Below are positions 2,007 to 63,820 of a DNA stretch of 64,000 nucleotides, piece by piece. A program made the position numbers and the translations under genes. The stretch is from Eledone cirrhosa (taxonomy: Eukaryota), in the NCBI GenBank assembly GCA_964016885.1, contig OZ024741.1, positions 265,794,001 through 265,858,000 on the forward strand. Reading direction: 5' to 3'. The stretch's first letter is position 1; every line of letters begins with the position of its first letter. The notes under the pieces were generated by a model. The model saw nothing but the letters and a program-made list of their open reading frames with translations. It did no database searches and was not told where the DNA came from.

Positions 2007-3776
2007 ATGTCCCCAGATGTATGTGAAAGTACAGAGGACCTCCTCAGCAGAATCAGTGAGTGCAACAAAAACAGGAGCCTATCCAACTGCATAATAGGCA
2101 GCATGGATGTAGTGTCACTGTACCCATCCATTAACATTGATTTTGCTGTGAAAAGATGTGTGGAGATGATCATTGAGAGTGAGGTGGAGTTCTGCGACGT
2201 CGACACAGACGAACTGGGCCTTCTACTTAGACTTACCTACGACACTGACTACCTAGACAGCCATGACCTTAGATGTTTCTGCCCTAGTAGACCTATAAGA
2301 GGTAGACCCCCCACCATAACCTCAATGGCTAAAAAGACTCCCATAGGAAGGTGGATTGGGTGGACCAAAGCCATACGGACCCCCCAAAACACTGATCAGG
2401 TAAGAAAAGTGGTCGCACATGCAATAGGGGCTAGTATCAAAACTACCCTAAAGGGCCACATATTTAAGTTCAATGAGAAAATCTACACCCAAAATGAGGG
2501 AGCAGCCATCGGCGTCAGCATAGCTGGTGATGTTGCCAACCTTTTCATGGTATGGTGGGAAAGGAGACTTAAAGATCTCCTTAATGAAAGCTCCATAGAC
2601 CTCATCATGTACTCTCGTTATGTAGACGATATCAATATAGTTATAAGAACACCCCCACTAGAGAGCACTAACAAGTTTGATTTAGAACGTAGCACGATGG
2701 AAAACATCCAGCAGATAGCTAATTCCATACACCAGAGTATAACTGTAACTATAGACTTCCCTTCCAAACACCCTAACAATAGACTACCTGTATTAGACAC
2801 AGAACTCTGGATTAACACTATAGACGAGAGAGCCCAAATTCTCCACTCACACTATGCTAAACCCATGGCCTCCAAATACCTGATACTCAAAAACTCAGCA
2901 ATGTCCAGTAGTGCTAAGTTTAATATTCTGATCGTAGATTTGGTACGAGTGATGAAGAATGTGTCCAGCATGTGCGACCCAACAGAAATGGAAGGACACA
3001 TCCAACACTTCATCAACCGCATGCAGTTCTCTGGCTACAACCAAAGAGACAGAGTCAGAGTATACGAAGGAGCCATGGAAAAGTATAAGACCCTCATAGA
3101 ACTGGACATGAAAGGAATCTTCCCACTATACAGGAGCAAATCATGGAATAGCTTAGATAGGGCTAGACATAAGATAGGGAAGGCCACATCATGGTACGAC
3201 AACCAGAGATATCAGAGTGTCATGTTTGTGGACGCCACCTCTGGAGGGAAATTAGCTAACCAGTGTAGAAAGGCCCTGAGAAAGACCCACTTAAAAATAA
3301 AGGTGGTAGAAAAGCCAGGAACCACCATAAAATCCCTGATCAGTAAAACCTACCCTTTTAAGAAAACCCACTGTACCAATAGGAAGTGTATCATATGTAA
3401 GGTGAACCCCCGGATAAACTGTAAAACTAGAAACGTAGTCTATAGCATAAGATGTACAGAGGGTACTTGCAGAAACATGACAACAACATACATAGGTGAG
3501 ACAGCTCGTAGCATAGGTGAAAGGATAGACCAACACTGGGGGGAACTAAAAGGACGAAAAAACGGGTCAGTACTATACGAAGATGCTAGACAACAACATG
3601 ACGGTAACATAGACAACATAGAAATTAGAATAATATCTAAACATAGGAATGACCCAGCAGATAGGCAAATCAGAGAGGCCAGTGAAATAGAAATTAGAAG
3701 ACCAAAGCTAAACAGAAAGAATGAGTGGAACAACAACAACACCCAAACAAACAACACTGACCTAAGAGAAGTATAA
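2007..3776 (+). CDS. PLE reverse transcriptase + GIY-YIG endonuclease (N-terminally truncated, otherwise open)
   Basis: Motif A SMDVVSLYPSI, motif B' YTQNEGAAIG, motif C YSRYVDDI, motif E LPVLD, Cys linker CTNRKCIIC..C, and GIY-YIG NVVYSIRC...YIGET..R..QH...REA..I..P.LNRKNEW. The frame continues upstream (IRPIIK) to the inversion junction, so the ATG is probably internal. Confidence 0.93.
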   Translation: MSPDVCESTEDLLSRISECNKNRSLSNCIIGSMDVVSLYPSINIDFAVKRCVEMIIESEVEFCDVDTDELGLLLRLTYDTDYLDSHDLRCFCPSRPIRGRPPTITSMAKKTPIGRWIGWTKAIRTPQNTDQVRKVVAHAIGASIKTTLKGHIFKFNEKIYTQNEGAAIGVSIAGDVANLFMVWWERRLKDLLNESSIDLIMYSRYVDDINIVIRTPPLESTNKFDLERSTMENIQQIANSIHQSITVTIDFPSKHPNNRLPVLDTELWINTIDERAQILHSHYAKPMASKYLILKNSAMSSSAKFNILIVDLVRVMKNVSSMCDPTEMEGHIQHFINRMQFSGYNQRDRVRVYEGAMEKYKTLIELDMKGIFPLYRSKSWNSLDRARHKIGKATSWYDNQRYQSVMFVDATSGGKLANQCRKALRKTHLKIKVVEKPGTTIKSLISKTYPFKKTHCTNRKCIICKVNPRINCKTRNVVYSIRCTEGTCRNMTTTYIGETARSIGERIDQHWGELKGRKNGSVLYEDARQQHDGNIDNIEIRIISKHRNDPADRQIREASEIEIRRPKLNRKNEWNNNNTQTNNTDLREV

Positions 3777-4050
3777 ATAAGTAAATAAAATAAAATAAAA
3801 TAAGATAAATAAATACATACACAAGCACAATAACAACAAGCACATAAACACACACTAGTCACCCAGCAGACACAACACTATACACACTAGTCACACATCA
3901 CACATAACACTATACACACACGCAAACGCATGCGCAAAGAAGACAAAATAAAATAAGATAAACAAACAAGCAAATAAATAAATAAATATATAGACAGACT
4001 GAATTAAAAAAAAATGGCGTAGACATACAACACAACAGGAGGAACAATGA

Positions 4051-4107
4051 ATATAACACCACTGACGATGTTGCAGATGTGCAACGAAAGATTTATGTAA
4101 ATTATGT
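4051..4107 (+). ncRNA. Type-I hammerhead ribozyme motif in PLE pLTR
   Basis: ca-CTGACGA-t-gttgca[gatg]tgcaac-GAAA-gatt-TA-tg, with a distal stem I atataa/ttatgt across an internal loop. Confidence 0.65.
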
Positions 4108-4316
4108 AAACTATATATATATATATGTGTTTGTGTCTATATTGTATCTGTATTATTTTTGACCGCCGGTCAGTCAATGGCAACATTGAGGACCGAGTAA
4201 GTTAGATCGCAGATATAATAAAAGACAGCGAGAAGCGAAAACCAACCAAACAGTGAGTGTGTTCTGTTATTAATTCTGGCAATATTACACAAATATGACC
4301 CTCCCCAAGTATAACA

Positions 4317-5095: not shown

Positions 5096-5449
5096 GTTCC
5101 CCACCAGCCCCACTCTCAAGAGCGTGAACCTAATAAACCTTTATTTGTCTGCCTCTCTGTTTTCGTTCCCGTCCAATTTTGCACTATATATATATATATA
5201 TATATCATTTATTATATTATATGAGATTATAGATATATACGTGTGTGTGTGTGTGTGTGTTTGTGGGTGGGAGTGTGTGTGTGTGTGTGGGGGGGGGGGG
5301 GTGTATGTGTGTGCAGGTGTGTGTGTGCGTCTTTATAAATGTGTCGTAGCGTGAGTTATTGAAGTAATAATTCTCATTTATGTCTGAGTATTTCTATCTA
5401 AATATAACATTAAAACAATCTGTAGTCGTGATAAAGCAACATTTAGTGG

Positions 5450-5633
5450 GATAATTGTTGGCACAAGGCCAGCAATTATGACAGTGTATTACTGGTACTT
5501 CATTTTATCGACCCCGTAAGGATGAAAGGTAAAGTTAACCTCGGCGGGATTTGAACTCAGACTATAAAACGCCGTAACTCTTTGCTGCAAAGCATGGCAT
5601 ACGACCCTCTACTGATACTGCCAATCCAGCGCC
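5450..5633 (-). mobile_element. tRNA-derived SINE family A (central gcctttcatccttacggggtcgataaa domain)
   Basis: A-box-like tggcagtatc, B-box-like gagttcaaatcc, and a shared central domain. More than 12 copies occur in the window. The central domain resembles the Meta/MESC domain as I recall it (unverified). Confidence 0.85.
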
Positions 5634-5924
5634 GGGAGTGTGTAATAATGTAGAACGATTGAAGTCTCGTAAAATATAAATATAAAGAATATAACACAAC
5701 ACAACTAAGCAGAAAATAGTTCTCCCGCAGGGGTGAGGGAAATACTTCCGGTAGACAGAAAAATACAAATAAATTTACAATCACGTGATTAACCGTCAGA
5801 TTTGTATTGTTTGCCTTTGTTTTCATTTTTTTTTTTCTTTTTCTTTTCCCTGTTTTTTTAAAAATTATTTGATGTCTGTTTAGAAATAGTTCGGCTGCCA
5901 ACCGTCAGATTGTTTTCGGAACAT

Positions 5925-10087: not shown

Positions 10088-10666
10088 GTGATGATGATGG
10101 TGATGATGATGAGAATTATAATAATAATGATAATACATAGAAGCATACATTCATATATACATACATGCACACATACATACATACATACATACATACATAC
10201 ATTCATATATACATACATGCATACATATATACATACATTCATACATAAATATATACATACATACATACATTCATACATACATTGATGCATACATGCATAC
10301 ATACATTGATATATACATACATGCATACATTGATATATACATACATACATGAACACATTCATATATACATGCATACATACATACATACATACATATATAT
10401 GTACATACATACATACATACATACATACACACACACATACATTGATACATACATACATAACAAATTCAATATAAAAAAAACTAACGTAATATAATGAAGG
10501 CTGAAAACAATTGAAATGAAGTATAATTGTGTTGTTTCGTTGTTGGCTTCTACTGAAATAATTTCAAAGAATGTTTTATGTATTGAGAAAAATGATATAA
10601 AGATTCGATAGGTAGGCTAGAATCTCCAGATTATTTCACTTACTTTTTCATAATACGTTCTCTATA

Positions 10667-11660
10667 TAACTAATATCTCGGGGCTAAATACTCAACATAT
10701 AGCTCTTCTTAAATAACTGGACCTCTCGTTGTCATAATACGTTCTTTATATAACTAATATCTCGGGGCTAAACACTCTTAAATAACTGGACCTCTCGTTG
10801 TCATAATACGTTCGTTTATATAACTAATATCTCGGGGCTAAATACTCAACATATAGCTCTTAAATAACTGGACCTATCAATTGTCATAATACGTTGGTTA
10901 TATAACTAATATCTCGGGGCTAAACACTCTTAAATAACTGGACCTCTTGTTGTCATAATACGTTCGTTTATATAACTAATATCTCGGGGCTAAATACTCA
11001 AGATATAGATCTTAAATAACTGGACCTATCAATTGTCATAATACGTTGGTTATATAACTAATATATCGGGGCTAAATACTCAAGATATAGATCTTAAATA
11101 ACTGGACCTATCAATTGTCATAATACGTTGGTTATATAACTAATATCTCGGGGCTAAACACTCTTAAATAACTGGACCTCTCGTTGTCATAATACGTTCT
11201 TTATATAACTAATATATCGGGGCTAAATACTCAAGATATAGCTCTTAAATAACTGGACCTCTCATTGTCATAAAACGTTCTATATATAATATATCGGGGC
11301 TAAATACTCAAGATATAGCTCTTAAATAACTGGACCTCTCATTGTCATAAAACGTTCTATATATAATATATCGGGGCTAAATACTCAAGATATAGATCTT
11401 AAATAACTGGACCTCTCATTGTCATAAAACGTTCTATATATAACTAATAGCTCGGGGCTAAATACTGAAGATATAGCTCTTCTTAAATAACTGGACCTCT
11501 CGTTGTCATAATACGTTCTATATATAACTAATATCTCGGGGCTAAATACTGAAGATATAGCTCTTCTTAAATAACTGTACCTCTCATTTCATAATACGTT
11601 GGTTATATAACTAATATCTAAACACTCAACATATAGATCTTAAATACTGGACCTCTCGTT
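10667..11660. repeat. Minisatellite, ~13 units of 71-83 bp
   Basis: Recurrent tcataatacgtt...taactaatatctcggggctaaa...cttaaataactggacct, with long and short variants. Confidence 0.95.
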
Positions 11661-47959: not shown

Positions 47960-48148
47960 ATATATATATATATATATATATTCATACATTAATACTACAG
48001 GTCAATTGTTAAACACACATTACCAGTTTATTGATGTTAACCGGTTTTCTCTACTACATATATTCCTTATATTCCTTGACTATTTACATAAAACATTGCC
48101 AATTATACAAATACATAAATACATAAGGCATATGAAAATATAGACTCA

Positions 48149-48211
<63 letters not shown>

Positions 48212-48213
<2 letters not shown>

Positions 48214-48771
48214 GCTGTCGCGTATGGGACAAATACAGTTGACTGCCGAGTCCATAGTAAGGATCAAACCGCCAGACTCTTTCAAAAACGAAAGAGAGGC
48301 GGTTTTCCTCTGTACGGTGGCTATGGTGAAAGAAGTTATATGGTGGACGAGGTTGAGAGGACTGAGGACAGATGCCTTTCTCTCCGGACAACAATTGATT
48401 CCCTTCTTTAAGTATCACTTTATAAGGAGAATCAGGGTGGAGAGAGAGGCACTGCACCCCAGTAAATTTACTGAAAGGTGGGTGAATGAAGCGAAAATGG
48501 CCCGAGTGATTGGGCCTTCTCTGTTTATAAGCCTGTAGGTTGAGGAAGAGAGCAAAAGGAAGAAAGGAGCACTTGCACAACACGCTCCTTGAGTTGAGGG
48601 TTGTTCTATCGACGGGGTATTAAACAACCCATTTGTGGCGCCTCCTCCCTATTGGGGATTTCGATTGTTGAAATTGTTTGTTTTTATATTTTTTACACGA
48701 CTGTATGTAAAATCCCCGGCATGTCTTTGTATTGTCCCCTTTCTTGTTGCGCCCTTGTGGCTAATAAAGAA

Positions 48772-48803
<32 letters not shown>

Positions 48804-49930
48804 GTTTATCTATCTATCTGACCACCGAGTCCATTGTCATGATCAAACCGCCACCCTCCTTCAAAAACGAAGGAGAGGCGGTTTTCCTTTGTGTGATAGC
48901 TATGGCGAAAGACGTTGTATGGTGGACAAGGTTGAAAGGGCTGAGGTCAGACACCTTTCTCTCCGGCCAACAACTGATTCTTTTTTTCAAATACCACTTT
49001 GGAAGAAGAATCAGGATGGAGAGAGAGGTGCTGTACCGCAGCAAGTTTTATGAAAGGTGGGTGAAAGTGGCGAGAATGGCCCGAGTGAATGGGCCTTCTC
49101 TCTATATCAGCCTGTAGATTGAGGAAAAGGAGGAGGAGAGGAAAGGAGTACAAGCTCTTCGTACTCCTGGAGATGAGGGTTGCACATTTTTTCGGGGGTA
49201 TGTGTTACCCATATAAACTGTCTCCCTCTATTGGGGAAAATCGACTAACTTTTAAATTCCATCTGTGATAACATTTTACACGTTTTTATTGTATGTAAAC
49301 TTCCCCCTTTGTATTTGTCCCCTTCTTTTGTGCCCCTGTGGCTAATAAAGAAATATATCTATCTATCTATCTGCTGTCGCGTATGGGACAAATACAGTTG
49401 ACTGCCGAGTCCATAGTAAGGATCAAACCGCCAGACTCTTTCAAAAACGAAAGAGAGGCGGTTTTCCTCTGTACGGTGGCTATGGTGAAAGAAGTTATAT
49501 GGTGGACGAGGTTGAGAGGACTGAGGACAGATGCCTTTCTCTCCGGACAACAATTGATTCCCTTCTTTAAGTATCACTTTATAAGGAGAATCAGGGTGGA
49601 GAGAGAGGCACTGCACCCCAGTAAATTTACTGAAAGGTGGGTGAATGAAGCGAAAATGGCCCGAGTGATTGGGCCTTCTCTGTTTATAAGCCTGTAGGTT
49701 GAGGAAGAGAGCAAAAGGAAGAAAGGAGCACTTGCACAACACGCTCCTTGAGTTGAGGGTTGTTCTATCGACGGGGTATTAAACAACCCATTTGTGGCGC
49801 CTCCTCCCTATTGGGGATTTCGATTGTTGAAATTGTTTGTTTTTATATTTTTTACACGACTGTATGTAAAATCCCCGGCATGTCTTTGTATTGTCCCCTT
49901 TCTTGTTGCGCCCTTGTGGCTAATAAAGAA

Positions 49931-49962
<32 letters not shown>

Positions 49963-50531
49963 GTTTATCTATCTATCTGACCACCGAGTCCATTGTCATG
50001 ATCAAACCGCCACCCTCCTTCAAAAACGAAGGAGAGGCGGTTTTCCTTTGTGTGATAGCTATGGCGAAAGACGTTGTATGGTGGACAAGGTTGAAAGGGC
50101 TGAAGTCAGACACCTTTCTCTCCGGCCAACAACTGATTCTTTTTTTCAAATACCACTTTGGAAGAAGAATCAGGATGGAGAGATAGGTGCTGTACCCCAG
50201 CAAGTTTTATGAAAGGTGGGTGAAAGTGGCGAGAATGGCCCGAGTGAATGGGCCTTCTCTCTATATCAGCCTGTAGGTTGAGGAAAAGGAGGAGGAGAGG
50301 AAAGGAGTACAAACTCTTCGTATTCCTGGAGATGAGGGTTGCACATTTTTTCGGGGGTATGTGTTACCCTTATGAACTGTCTCCCCCTATTGGGGAAAAT
50401 CGACTAATTTTTTAAATTGCATTTGTGATAATATTTTACGTTTTTATTGTATGTAAACTTCCCCCTTTGTATTTTTCCCTTTCTTTTGTGCCCCTGTGGC
50501 TAATAAAGAAACATATCTATGTATCTATCTG

Positions 50532-50575
<44 letters not shown>

Positions 50576-51132
50576 CTTACCGAGTCTATTGTAATGATCA
50601 AACCGTCTACCCTCTTCAAAATCGAAGGAGAGGCGGTGTTTCTGTGCGTAATAGCCATGGCGAAAGAGGTTGTATGGTGGACGCGTCTGAAAGGACTGAG
50701 GTCAGACACCTTTCTCTCTGGCCAACAACTGGTTCGTTTCTTCCGATATCATTTCGGAAGAAGGATCAGGATGGAGAGAGAGGTGCTGCACCCCAGCCGT
50801 TTTTATGAAAGATGGGTGAAAGTGGCGAGAATGGCCCGTGTGAATGGGCCTTCACTCTACATCAGACTGTAGGTGAGAAAGATGAAAGATCAAGGGAGAA
50901 CCCTCTCTCTGTGCTCCCGAGGAGAAGGGTTGCACACTTTTTCGGGGGTGTGTGCGACTCCCCAAGGCGCCTCCTCCCTATTGAGGATTTTGTTATTCAA
51001 TTTATTTTTGTTATATTTTATATCTTATATTTTTATATTTTGTTATTGCCTCCTCCTTATTGAGCACGCCTTATGTAAACTCCCCCCATTGTACTTGTCC
51101 CACTCTTTGACGCCCTGGTGGCAAATAAAAAG

Positions 51133-51195
<63 letters not shown>

Positions 51196-51522
51196 AAGCG
51201 CGTGTGCAACCCCCATCACGTCCCCTCCCTTTTGAGGTTGTTTTCGATTATTTTCATTTTATACCCTTTTTACTCGATTTTATGTAAACTCCCCCTTTGT
51301 ATTTGTCCCTTCTTTTTATGCCTTTATGGTAAATAAAGAAATATATCTATCTATCTAAGGCGCCTCTTCCTCTCCTCCTCCCTTCTCCTCCCTATTGGGG
51401 ATTTTGTTATTAAATTTATTTTTGTTATATTTTATATTTTATTTTTTATATCTTCTTATTGCCTCCTCCTTAGTGAGGACGCCTTTTTATGTAAACTCTC
51501 CCCATTGTACTTGACCCACTTT

Positions 51523-51587
<65 letters not shown>

Positions 51588-52688
51588 CCGGTTCGTGACA
51601 AGATCTACAGGCACGGACGCCCTGGCAGGGATCCTTCCAAGAGGACGTGTCCAAGATGTGCGCAGGTCATTGAAACAGTTCTGCACGCAATTGTACACTG
51701 CCCGGGCGTAAGCGACCTGTGGAACTATGCAGAACAACTGCTGTCGCGTATGGGACAAATACAGTTGACTGCCGAGTCCATAGTAAGGATCAAACCGCCA
51801 GACTCTTTCAAAAACGAAAGAGAGGCGGTTTTCCTCTGTACGGTGGCTATGGTGAAAGAAGTTATATGGTGGACGAGGTTGAGAGGACTGAGGACAGATG
51901 CCTTTCTCTCCGGACAACAATTGATTCCATTCTTTAAGTATCACTTTAGAAGGAGTGATTGGGCCTTCTCTGTTTATAAGCCTGTAGGTTGAGGAAGAGA
52001 GCAAAAGGAAGAAAGGAGCACTTGCACAACACGCCCCTTGAGTTGAGGGTTGTTCTATCGACGGGGTATTAAACAACCCATTTGTGGCGCCTCCCCCCTA
52101 TTGGGGATTTCGATTGTTGAAATTGTTTGTTTTTATATTTTTTACACGACTGTATGTAAAATCCCCGGCATGTCTTTGTATTGTCCCCTTTCTTGTTGCG
52201 CTCTTGTGGCTAATAAAGAAATCTAACTAACTATAGTAGCTATGGTGAAAGAAGTTATATGGTGGACGAGATTGAGAGGACTGAGGACAGATGCCTTTCT
52301 CTCCGGACAACAATTGATTCCCGTCTTTAAGTATCACTTTAGAAGGAGAATCAGAGTGGAGAGAGAGGCACTGCACCCCAGTAAATTTACTGAAAGGTGG
52401 GTGAATGTGGCAAAAATGGCCCGAGTGATTGGGCCTTCTCTGTTTATAAGCCTGTAGGTTGAAGAAGAAAGCAAAAGGAGGAAAGGAGCACTTGCACAAC
52501 ACGCTCCTGAAGTTGAGGGTTGTTCTATCGACGGGGTATTAAACAACCCATTTGTGGCGCCTCCTCCCTATTGGGGATTTCGATTGTTATAATTGTTTCA
52601 ATATTTTTACACGACTGTATGTAAAATCCCCGGCATGTGTCTTTGTTTTGTCCCCTTTTCTTGTACGCCCTTGTGGCAAATAAAGAAA
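48212..52688 (+). mobile_element. Array of nine co-oriented 5'-truncated Tx1/L1-like retrotransposon ends in (TCTA)n
   Basis: Copies at ~48212-48772, 48818-49353, 49371-49931, 49977-50511, 50575-51132, 51196-51341, 51357-51525, 51585-52221 and 52233-52688. ORF2 end reads AMVKEVIWWTR...RRIRVERE..FTERW. Most copies end AATAAA(GAAA)-(TCTA)n. Confidence 0.9.
51585..51950 (+). pseudogene. Tx1/L1 ORF2 zinc-knuckle (zf-RVT) and C-terminus
   Basis: LPVRDKIYRHG...TCPRCAQVIETVLHAIVHCPGVSDLW, a CCHC motif. Confidence 0.88.
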
Positions 52689-52922
52689 TATATCTATCTC
52701 TCTCTATATATGTGTGTTTGAGTGTCCCGGGTTCAATCGGGGGTTACCACTGTTAGTAAGGTATTCAATACATCAGTAGAGTCTAAACATCATGTTTAAT
52801 AGAGACATGGCTTCTACAGGTCTTTCCTGATGATTTCTTTTGAATGAAACTGTTCTAGTCCTGTAGAAGCCATTTGTATATATATATATATAAATATATA
52901 TATACACATATCTCTCTGTCTA

Positions 52923-61572: not shown

Positions 61573-61716
61573 TTTTTTATTATTTTTATTTATTTTTTAT
61601 TTTTATACTTTTATATCTTGTTATTGCCTCCTCCTTATTGAGGACGCCTTTGCATGTAAACTCCCCCCTTTGTACTTGTCCCACTTTTGATGCCCTGGTG
61701 GCAAATAAAAAGAAAG

Positions 61717-61780
<64 letters not shown>

Positions 61781-62385
61781 ACATTTTACACGTTTTTATT
61801 GTATGTAAACTTCCCCCTTTGTATTTGTCCCCTTCTTTTGTGCCCCTGTGGCTAATAAAGAAACATATCTATCTATCTATCTATCTATTAAATAAAGAAC
61901 AACTGATTCGTTTTTTCAAATATCATTTTGGAAGAAGAATCAGGATGGAGAGAGGTGCTGTACCCCAGCAAATTTTATAAAAGGTGGGTGAATGTGGCAA
62001 AGATGGCCCGAGTGGTTGGGCCTTCTCTCTATATAAGCCAGTAGGTTGAGGAAAAAGAGGAAGAGGGGAAGGGAGTACTCACTCTTGGTGCTCCTGGAGT
62101 TTAGGGTTGTACATTTTCTCGGGGTGTGTACAACCCCTGTGTTACGCCTCCCCCCTATTGGGGATTTCAATTGTTATTTGTTATTTTATTAATAGTTTTA
62201 TTTTCATATACCTGTATGTAAACTCCCCATTTGTATTTGTCCCCTTCTTTTGTGCCCTTGTGGCTAATAAAGAAATTTATCTATCTCTTTTTACACGCCT
62301 TGTATGTAAACTCCCCAATTGTATTTGTCCCCATCTTTTGTGCTCTTGTGGCTAATAAAGAAATTTATCTATCAAATAAAGAAAT
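61573..62385 (+). mobile_element. Second cluster of Tx1-like 3' ends in (TCTA)n
   Basis: Copies at ~61573-61717, 61781-61863, 61897-62274 and 62288-62363. QLIRFFKYHFGRRIRMER; tgtggctaataaagaaa ends. Confidence 0.85.
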
Positions 62386-62999: not shown

Positions 63000-63494
63000 C
63001 TTTGAGTCTCAGTCATTGATGTTATTTAACTGGAAAGTTTGTTGAAATGAATATCAAGCCGCTACCTGCAGCCTCAGGACGTATCGCAGGGTTCTTGTTG
63101 TTCCCAGCAAGCAAGCTTTTGAAGTGTTCCAAAAAGCGGGGCTGGACTAATCTTCTTTAACCATGCTTGGAAACTCATTGAGATAGTACCTAGTGCGCCT
63201 ATGACAATCGGGACCACTTTGACCTCATGGCAGTTCCAAATCCTTTTTACCTCCCACTTTAAGTCCTGGTATCGGTTAATTTTCTCCCTCTCCTTTTCTT
63301 GCACTCTCGTGTCAAATGGGCAGGCTACATCTACAATCAGGCACGATCTTTTTTCCTTGTCCAAAACCACCATGTCAGGCCTATTGTGTTCCAGTTTCTT
63401 GTCCGTCTGTATCCTAAAATCCCATAGTCCCTTCACCTAATCGTTTTCTATCACCGACTCTGGCTTATGCTCATACCACTTCTCAGAATGTGGT
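63000..63494 (-). pseudogene. R4/Dong-like RLE 3' fragment in (AAT)n
   Basis: KWYEHKPESVIEND..LWDFRIQTDKKLEHNRPDMVV..LIVDVACP..EKINRYQDL..VPIVIGALG. (AAT)n lies on both sides. Confidence 0.9.
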
Positions 63495-63590
63495 ATTATT
63501 ATTATTATTATTTCATCCTTACGGGGTCGATAAAATAAAGTACCAGTAATGCACTGGGTAATTGCTGGCCTTGTGCCTAAAGTAGAAACA

Positions 63591-63621
<31 letters not shown>

Positions 63622-63622
<1 letters not shown>

Positions 63623-63820
63623 GTGGCCTTTTAATGGGCTTTCACCACAAATGTCCCTCGGAAGTCTCCCCCCTATTGGGGAATTTTTCATTGTTATTTT
63701 TTTGTTACATCCTCTGTTTTTGTTTTTTACACGCAGAAATGCCCATTTGTACCGTCCTGTATTGTCCTGTACTGTCCTTAATGTCTACTTTATGTAAACC
63801 CTTGTGGTTAATAAAGAAAG

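Follow-up and report, generated by a model that had tools for sequence, protein, structure and literature searches.

An array of short retrotransposon pieces lies at 48148-52700 of the window, by which we mean the whole 64,000-nt stretch of the Eledone cirrhosa genome analysed here (contig OZ024741.1, positions 265,794,001 to 265,858,000, forward strand). The pieces belong to a lineage of long interspersed nuclear elements (LINEs) with three TCTA families, A, B, and C, and a sister family G at (ATT)n. The lineage targets TATCT, a conclusion we hold with very high confidence, and the true target is a short motif of 5-6 nt, pyrimidine^TATCT, which lies mostly within (TCTA)n, and not the microsatellite as such. 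A sub-lineage of family A, here called A', inserts at AATAT instead, and the target tracks the element haplotype while the apurinic endonuclease-like (APE) domain is unchanged. Microsatellite-targeting LINEs themselves are known; new here is an AATAT-targeting lineage with an endonuclease identical to the TCTA-targeting one. The genomic copies suggest that two things together determine the insertion site, a permissive endonuclease and the base pairing of some 5 nt of read-through RNA that are inherited via the target-site duplication, and we assign this reading a probability of roughly 60%.

The target-site duplications were 9-24 nt long and started with TATCT right behind the last two bases of the element, with zero added repeat units. 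Their register was constant although the final two bases of the element differ among subfamilies, and the base preceding the TATCT duplication was C or T at 18 of 18 sites. As the duplications start at TATCT, the motif is present on both sides after each insertion. Duplications of at least 10 nt that included non-repeat sequence were found in 16 of 52 family-A copies, as compared with 119 of 2652 mismatched pairs, and in 8 of 44 family-B copies (mismatched pairs, 136/1892). Genome-wide, 1770 of 2131 A-type ends continued with T[C/A]TATCT, and lineage ends followed by TATCTAT numbered 9,417 on one strand, about 19,000 in all. Flank statistics were calculated after de-duplication (99 to 87 A, 72 to 62 B, and 53 to 33 G copies); window copies, copies whose flank was shorter than 60 nt (16 of 67 in one set), and copies below 93% or 97.5% identity to the reference were left out of the counts. 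Among truncated copies, 36 of 52 in family A and 33 of 44 in family B had (TCTA)2 in the 25 nt preceding them, against a background of 504 in 57,000 windows (0.9%) in 200 kb of arbitrary DNA, and antisense 5' (TCTA)2 was seen in none of 124 cases. Both flanks carried the TCTA repeat in 51 of 74 A and 33 of 50 B copies, which is the fraction that an initial annotation of the window had suggested measuring, and (ATT)n stood on both flanks of 20 of 22 G copies. The annotation had proposed a strand-specific GATA/TCTA-targeting lineage in which each insertion regenerates the target. The strand-specific targeting extends genome-wide, with the short motif as its object rather than the microsatellite, and regeneration takes place by target-site duplication, not through a synthesised repeat tail. 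The tail-only pattern that the annotation had named as its counter-case was not what we found, most truncated A and B copies having (TCTA)2 on their 5' side.

Family-A ends followed by AATAT occurred 105 times genome-wide, with AATAT duplicated from the target. Such duplications were identified at 15 and 21 distinct sites, and the preceding base was C or T at 15/15 and 21/21 of them. Most AATAT loci were chosen by their tail; the tail-blind evidence consists of a clade among 34 long copies and of a test of carriers of single-nucleotide polymorphisms (SNPs). When 34 long A copies were fetched regardless of flank, the four AATAT-tailed ones formed one clade with three private SNPs. Among the first 30 of 79 one-SNP carriers, the 18 double-SNP carriers ended with AATAT (17) or AATAA (1), and none of these 18 had a TATCT tail; the six TATCT carriers in this test were old copies (88-97% alike) in which the second SNP was absent or unspanned, and two ends were unreadable. 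The A' SNPs were found in none of the TATCT copies spanning them (SNP 5291, 0/80; SNP 4926, 0/70; the third, 0/31). The first 100 ends listed comprised 85 TATCT, 11 AATAT, 2 mixed, and 2 CATCT (p ~1e-12), so positions +1 and +4 change together, indicating two targets and not one loose motif.

The endonuclease did not follow this split. APE residues 1-250 of the A' copies L136 and L138 were the majority, TCTA-targeting sequence, and four other A' copies had one or two APE changes each, none common to all. A comparison of three full-length A' copies with 20 TATCT copies along the entire element showed four differing sites: two were silent, and the others were Q449R in the first open reading frame (ORF1) and D932Y in ORF2; the A' copies keep intact ORF2 frames. 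The unchanged endonuclease of the AATAT sub-lineage argues against a choice of target by the endonuclease alone. A second AATAT haplotype, with its own SNPs, accounts for four of the seven AATAT copies without D932Y. The 5' leader of one full-length A' copy matches copies lying in a satellite on chromosome C1, whose 3' flank begins AATATT, a single hint that this satellite may have been the donor site of the AATAT lineage. In addition, A' copies were seen stacked in a satellite with units of about 50 nt, always at the same AATATT site (L258, G000 C1:35249600-35259599; L145), and AATAT-type ends seem frequent on small chromosomes (C19-C26) as well as towards the end of C1.

Under the proposed mechanism, the APE would nick the bottom (GATA) strand on the 5' side of a purine within A/T-rich W-A-T-M-T contexts, and the transcript would extend a few bases beyond GAAAUC (6 nt behind AAUAAA) into the donor flank. 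About five read-through bases would then anneal to the primer strand and pick the site, and the target-site duplication would pass the five-base flank of the donor to the daughter. Reuse of the duplicated tracts, together with occasional local recombination, would produce head-to-tail arrays, and the array in the window would be an accumulation of 5'-truncated copies from a young two-ORF LINE lineage with APE and reverse transcriptase (RT), in one direction and register. A pairing of RNA end and target that aids priming has been described for the L1 poly(A) with T-tracts (PMC3649969) and for the read-through RNA of R2Ol (PMC6530143); papers are cited here by PubMed Central number. In both systems, as in the present proposal, complementarity between the last few bases of the RNA and the nicked strand favours priming; there, however, pairing boosts efficiency at a fixed target, while here it would define a new, inherited one. 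The chances are even that the stronger form of this proposal holds, namely that specificity is written in the genomic flank, with about five read-through bases serving as a guide that is copied 3' by the duplication, and that one off-target master founds a new-target lineage with its endonuclease unchanged. If so, the TCTA, AATAT, and perhaps ATT specificities would be RNA-programmed.

The best-surviving alternative, which we consider possible though rather unlikely, is that TATCT targeting is real and protein-only. The APE would read the GATA strand, and the switch to AATAT would be due to changes beyond the APE (in A', D932Y or ORF1 Q449R) or, in the second haplotype, to M858I, A1052S, or APE changes. 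All 28 aligned copies with D932Y are AATAT copies, as this explanation would have it; D932 is, on the other hand, kept in seven AATAT copies (six events), residue 932 is D, D, E, and N across four families, and Q449R lies within a low-complexity T/Q linker. The same new target would moreover need two different sets of non-APE changes. A role of the protein is also suggested by the hairpin loop of the endonuclease, which reads NRSG in the three TCTA families and KRIG in the ATT family, the same loop shaping nicking by the L1 endonuclease (L1-EN; PMC1950540). The Xenopus Tx1L and human L1 endonucleases (PMC1950540; PDB 2v0r, 1vyb, 8sxt) have the same APE fold and catalytic motifs as the lineage described here, and the hairpin loop aligns. 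Grafting loops in L1-EN did not carry specificity over in modular fashion (PMC1950540). The Tx1L endonuclease (Tx1L-EN) is sequence-specific on its own (PMC1950540), whereas here an identical APE is found with two targets.

Several points weigh against the joint choice of site by endonuclease and read-through RNA. The A' copies do carry ORF2 D932Y and ORF1 Q449R, and D932Y is present in 27 of 34 AATAT copies spanning the site. The second haplotype has M858I and A1052S, its one APE-covering copy has three APE changes, and it may share its history with A', as one of its SNPs occurs in three A' copies. The read-through RNA tail is a prediction from genomic copies, and lineages with other tails are scarce. 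Because TATCT and AATAT both fit W-A-T-M-T, the endonuclease probably still limits the choice, and PMC4494074 and PMC3812793 credit target choice mainly to the endonuclease, which is equally a point for the protein-only explanation. As regards the flanks, a 5' (TCTA)2 was missing in 16 of the 52 truncated copies of family A and in 11 of the 44 of family B, and the older family C, with crude boundaries, had it in just 7 of 22. Finally, full-length copies bring their own TCTA leader, visible at AATAT sites, and their 5' TCTA (21/22) is therefore not evidence. This CTATCTATCTCTCT leader, seen at the 5' junctions of L145, L258, and L374, means that a short TCTA target is planted even at non-TCTA sites.

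That A' RNAs are mobilised in trans by an AATAT-preferring ORF2 of another family seems improbable. Related families do have a common 3' end signal, and about one-quarter of the first 100 AATAT-followed lineage ends were of G type; only 161 such ends exist genome-wide, however, and they are mostly A'. Family G is itself inserted in (ATT)n (after 32 of 33 copies), the A' ORF2 frames are intact, and a trans partner would need to single out one haplotype. The elements of family G are 6.0 kb long, and its ORF2 is 61% (APE) and 76% (RT) alike to that of family A. It stacks head to tail as well (L156-L175).

It is very improbable that TCTA is a synthesised 3' tail only and that copies gather passively in or beside older tails, a picture suggested by 3' tracts of up to about 90 nt and by the 18 of 51 copies that lie behind another copy. 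The unique-sequence duplications show that the bases past GAAATC come from the target, and 5' TCTA was present also at copies with no element upstream, with zero antisense cases. The same 18 of 51 focal A copies have a co-oriented 3' end within 150 nt upstream; of 16 random tracts, 2 lay beside an end. Regenerated targets thus explain most of the stacking, and any excess beyond the share of element-adjacent tracts is modest. As a separate observation, the same non-TCTA sequence follows TCTATCTTGATAG in the 3' flanks of L007/L032, L024, L066, L140, and L190, pointing to insertion into a TCTA stretch of another dispersed repeat.

The array itself (Table 1) is far denser than expected, as 4.55 kb would be expected to hold 0.03 lineage ends, given about 19,000 of them in 3.0 Gb. 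The initial annotation had reported nine co-oriented 3' ends in 4.5 kb. There are indeed nine co-oriented LINE pieces, of which eight have the 3' signal GG[CT][AT]AATAAA (at 48759, 49340, 49918, 50498, 51120, 51328, 52208, and 52675) and C2 does not. They represent four subfamilies that are pairwise 72-83% alike (four pieces of A, two of B, two of C, and one of the fourth type), in line with the "at least three" of the annotation, and the four further ends it had placed at 61.6-62.4 kb were found as complete 3' signals at 61700, 61850, 62262, and 62350. This second array additionally contains two ultra-short AATAAAGAA stubs. The pieces were said to be nearly all separated by (TCTA)n; TCTA tracts do lie between them, the junction at 52222-52235 being of another kind. 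All 12 tracts of (TCTA)≥3 in the window are on the + strand, which is the element sense strand, and inside the two arrays, and no (TAGA)≥3 tract was found in the whole window. Microhomology was confirmed at the two 5' junctions quoted in the annotation, which share CT and TCTA with the element; in a wider set of 5' junctions in pure repeat, an overlap with the element of at least 2 nt was found in 10 of 21, compared with 12% in simulations. The array query returned 2301 candidates in the genome, and 40 of 40 scored were at 100% (rounded). Piece A1 is 99.5% identical to positions 5253-5813 of the natural full-length copy L034.

Table 1. Features of the two arrays and of the neighbouring sister-family copy (window positions).
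Feature	Positions	Strand	Remark
(TCTA)15 target tract, array head	48148..48211	+	
A1, 5'-truncated family-A LINE: ORF2 C-terminus, 3' untranslated region (UTR), AATAAA, end GAAATC	48212..48774	+	
Imperfect TCTA spacer	48775..48818	+	identical repeat at 49934-49977
B1, truncated family-B copy, young	48819..49353	+	39 other 100% matches among 40 scored
A2, same sequence and 5' break as A1	49371..49933	+	probable local recombinational duplicate
B2, 5' break as in B1	49978..50511	+	96.6% alike, differences begin past 127 nt
C1, truncated family-C copy, older	50576..51132	+	relatives 95-97%
E1, short 3' UTR piece, fourth subfamily	51196..51341	+	
C2, family-C 3' UTR piece without AATAAA end	51358..51524	+	
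A3, truncated family-A copy	51584..52221	+	internal deletion of about 75 nt
CX2CX8HX4C motif of ORF2 C-terminus	51648..51701	+	zf-RVT, E 0.005 for fragment
A4, older family-A copy (93.5%)	52236..52688	+	5' junction not TCTA
Second array of four 3' pieces, one each of C and B and two belonging to a further type	61576..62363	+	TCTA tracts between pieces
Sister family G copy	63622..63820	+	(ATT)n on both sides

The stretches 48212-48772 and 49371-49931 were 100% identical over 561 nt, with a shared 5' break and imperfect spacer, and the B pieces after the two A units have a common 5' break and first 127 nt, followed by 18 differences. One A+spacer+B unit in the main array is therefore probably a local recombinational copy, and the nine pieces are then not nine independent insertions. 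The 5' break of A1 and A2 occurs at five places genome-wide, two of which are in the window. A mobile A+spacer+B composite was considered and rejected, since the three other loci with the same break do not carry the composite. That the array arose mainly by local tandem duplication or misassembly, as the identity of A1 and A2 and the absence of the same spacer and B piece at these three loci might suggest, is very unlikely, because duplication accounts for one unit only and the remaining pieces differ in their breaks and ages and represent four subfamilies that are 72-83% alike. Contigs of four runs matched the array with short multi-copy pieces only. Elsewhere, whole element-plus-flank units are tandemly duplicated (L287-L290, C1:430.29 Mb; L042/L068). 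Other features of the window include mirror-image short-repeat sets at 1043-1757 and 3773-4154, suggesting a long inverted repeat at about 1.3-4.2 kb, and a tandem array at 10648-11657 with periods of 77, 152, and 234 nt. On the minus strand at 63020-63500, beside an ATT tract and in the opposite orientation, lies a fragment that we take to resemble the C-terminus of a restriction-like endonuclease (RLE)-type, Dong/R4-like element.

The full-length element, whose assembly the annotation had suggested, exists as natural intact copies of 5.8 kb with ORF1 and an APE-RT-CCHC ORF2. Copy L034 is 5813 nt long and contains an ORF1 with a CCHC knuckle and an ORF2 of 1148 amino acids from its ATG; an intact ORF2 was also found in families B and G, and a stop-free frame of about 1170 amino acids surrounded about 30 of the 150 scored APE matches. 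Pfam assigned Exo_endo_phos (PF03372), RVT_1 (PF00078), and zf-RVT (PF13966) to the ORF2 of families A, B, and G. The RT motif was YADD in 16 of 18 family-A copies listed and YADN in two, L034 among them. In a search of solved structures, L1 ORF2p was the best match (E 3e-54, vs. E 1e-21 for R2). The copies show 5' truncation and target-site duplications and have no long terminal repeats (LTRs), as is typical of the L1 group of non-LTR retrotransposons, to which the lineage belongs. The annotation had taken a CCHC knuckle and the ORF2 C-terminus to identify L1/Tx1; both are present and the L1 group is confirmed, whereas the C-terminus alone does not show Tx1. Membership in the Tx1 clade is likely, based on anatomy and lifestyle and not on phylogeny. 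A gag-like CCHC knuckle in ORF1 is a feature of the Tx1 clade, and here the ORF1 knuckle CX2CX4HX4C is visible by eye, its Pfam zf-CCHC match (E 0.14-0.24) being below the cut-off. Families A, B, C, and G formed one clade in a 27-row tree built without named Tx1 references, and none of the 34 homologues retrieved was a Tx1-named entry. For the 3' UTR, folding did not exceed that of shuffled sequences (z -1.17). A further related APE, 63% alike to family A, lies directly downstream of an A copy (L017:375-1061).

Microsatellite-specific APE LINEs have been described previously (PMC4494074, PMC3812793, PMC4640811). They include Kibi at (TC)n and Koshi at (TTC)n, from the Tx1 clade of teleosts, and crocodilian Tx1 families in (TTCC)n/(TTTC)n (PMC4494074, PMC3812793). 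Like these, the present lineage consists of APE-type LINEs specific to a microsatellite, and with families A, B, and G it is far above the threshold of PMC4494074, the same repeat at the flanks in more than 20% of copies. It is not Kibi or Koshi by target, as its duplications begin with TATCT and not with (TC)n or (TTC)n, and TATCT/(TCTA)n is absent from the target lists in the accessible text of PMC4494074, PMC3812793, and PMC4640811. It further differs, in a comparison by target and not by phylogeny, in its host group and in having an ATT sister family and a haplotype-linked AATAT switch in one genome. L1 has poly(A) at its junctions, while the present lineage retains none. In Octopus vulgaris, 13 recently active L1-Tx1 families with 421 near-full-length insertions are reported (PMC13282606), and the present families may be among them; the main text of that paper never uses the word "target", and the accessible text of PMC10294476 added nothing on insertion targets. 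A literature search, with Repbase, Dfam, subscription papers, and supplements outside its range, returned no report of a TCTA/GATA-targeting LINE or of a flank-inherited target switch.

The initial annotation had regarded the lineage as a potential site-specific integration tool. With on the order of 10^5 tracts in the genome, it makes a weak tool in its present form, unless its RNA tail should turn out to be programmable; tract starts counted in one phase alone came to 32,557. Target choice and target change in microsatellite-specific LINEs of the APE type are described as poorly understood, and the endonuclease usually gets the credit (PMC3812793). Here, natural elements that are more than 99% alike and have the same endonuclease differ in their targets, which opens the question of protein versus RNA to a five-base swap. 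If the tail does not direct insertion, the lineage, with its roughly 19,000 ends, adds one more LINE to those that target microsatellites and shapes the GATA repeats of the genome. If it does, a single step could switch the target with no need for the proteins to evolve, and RNA could partly retarget an APE-RT inserter.

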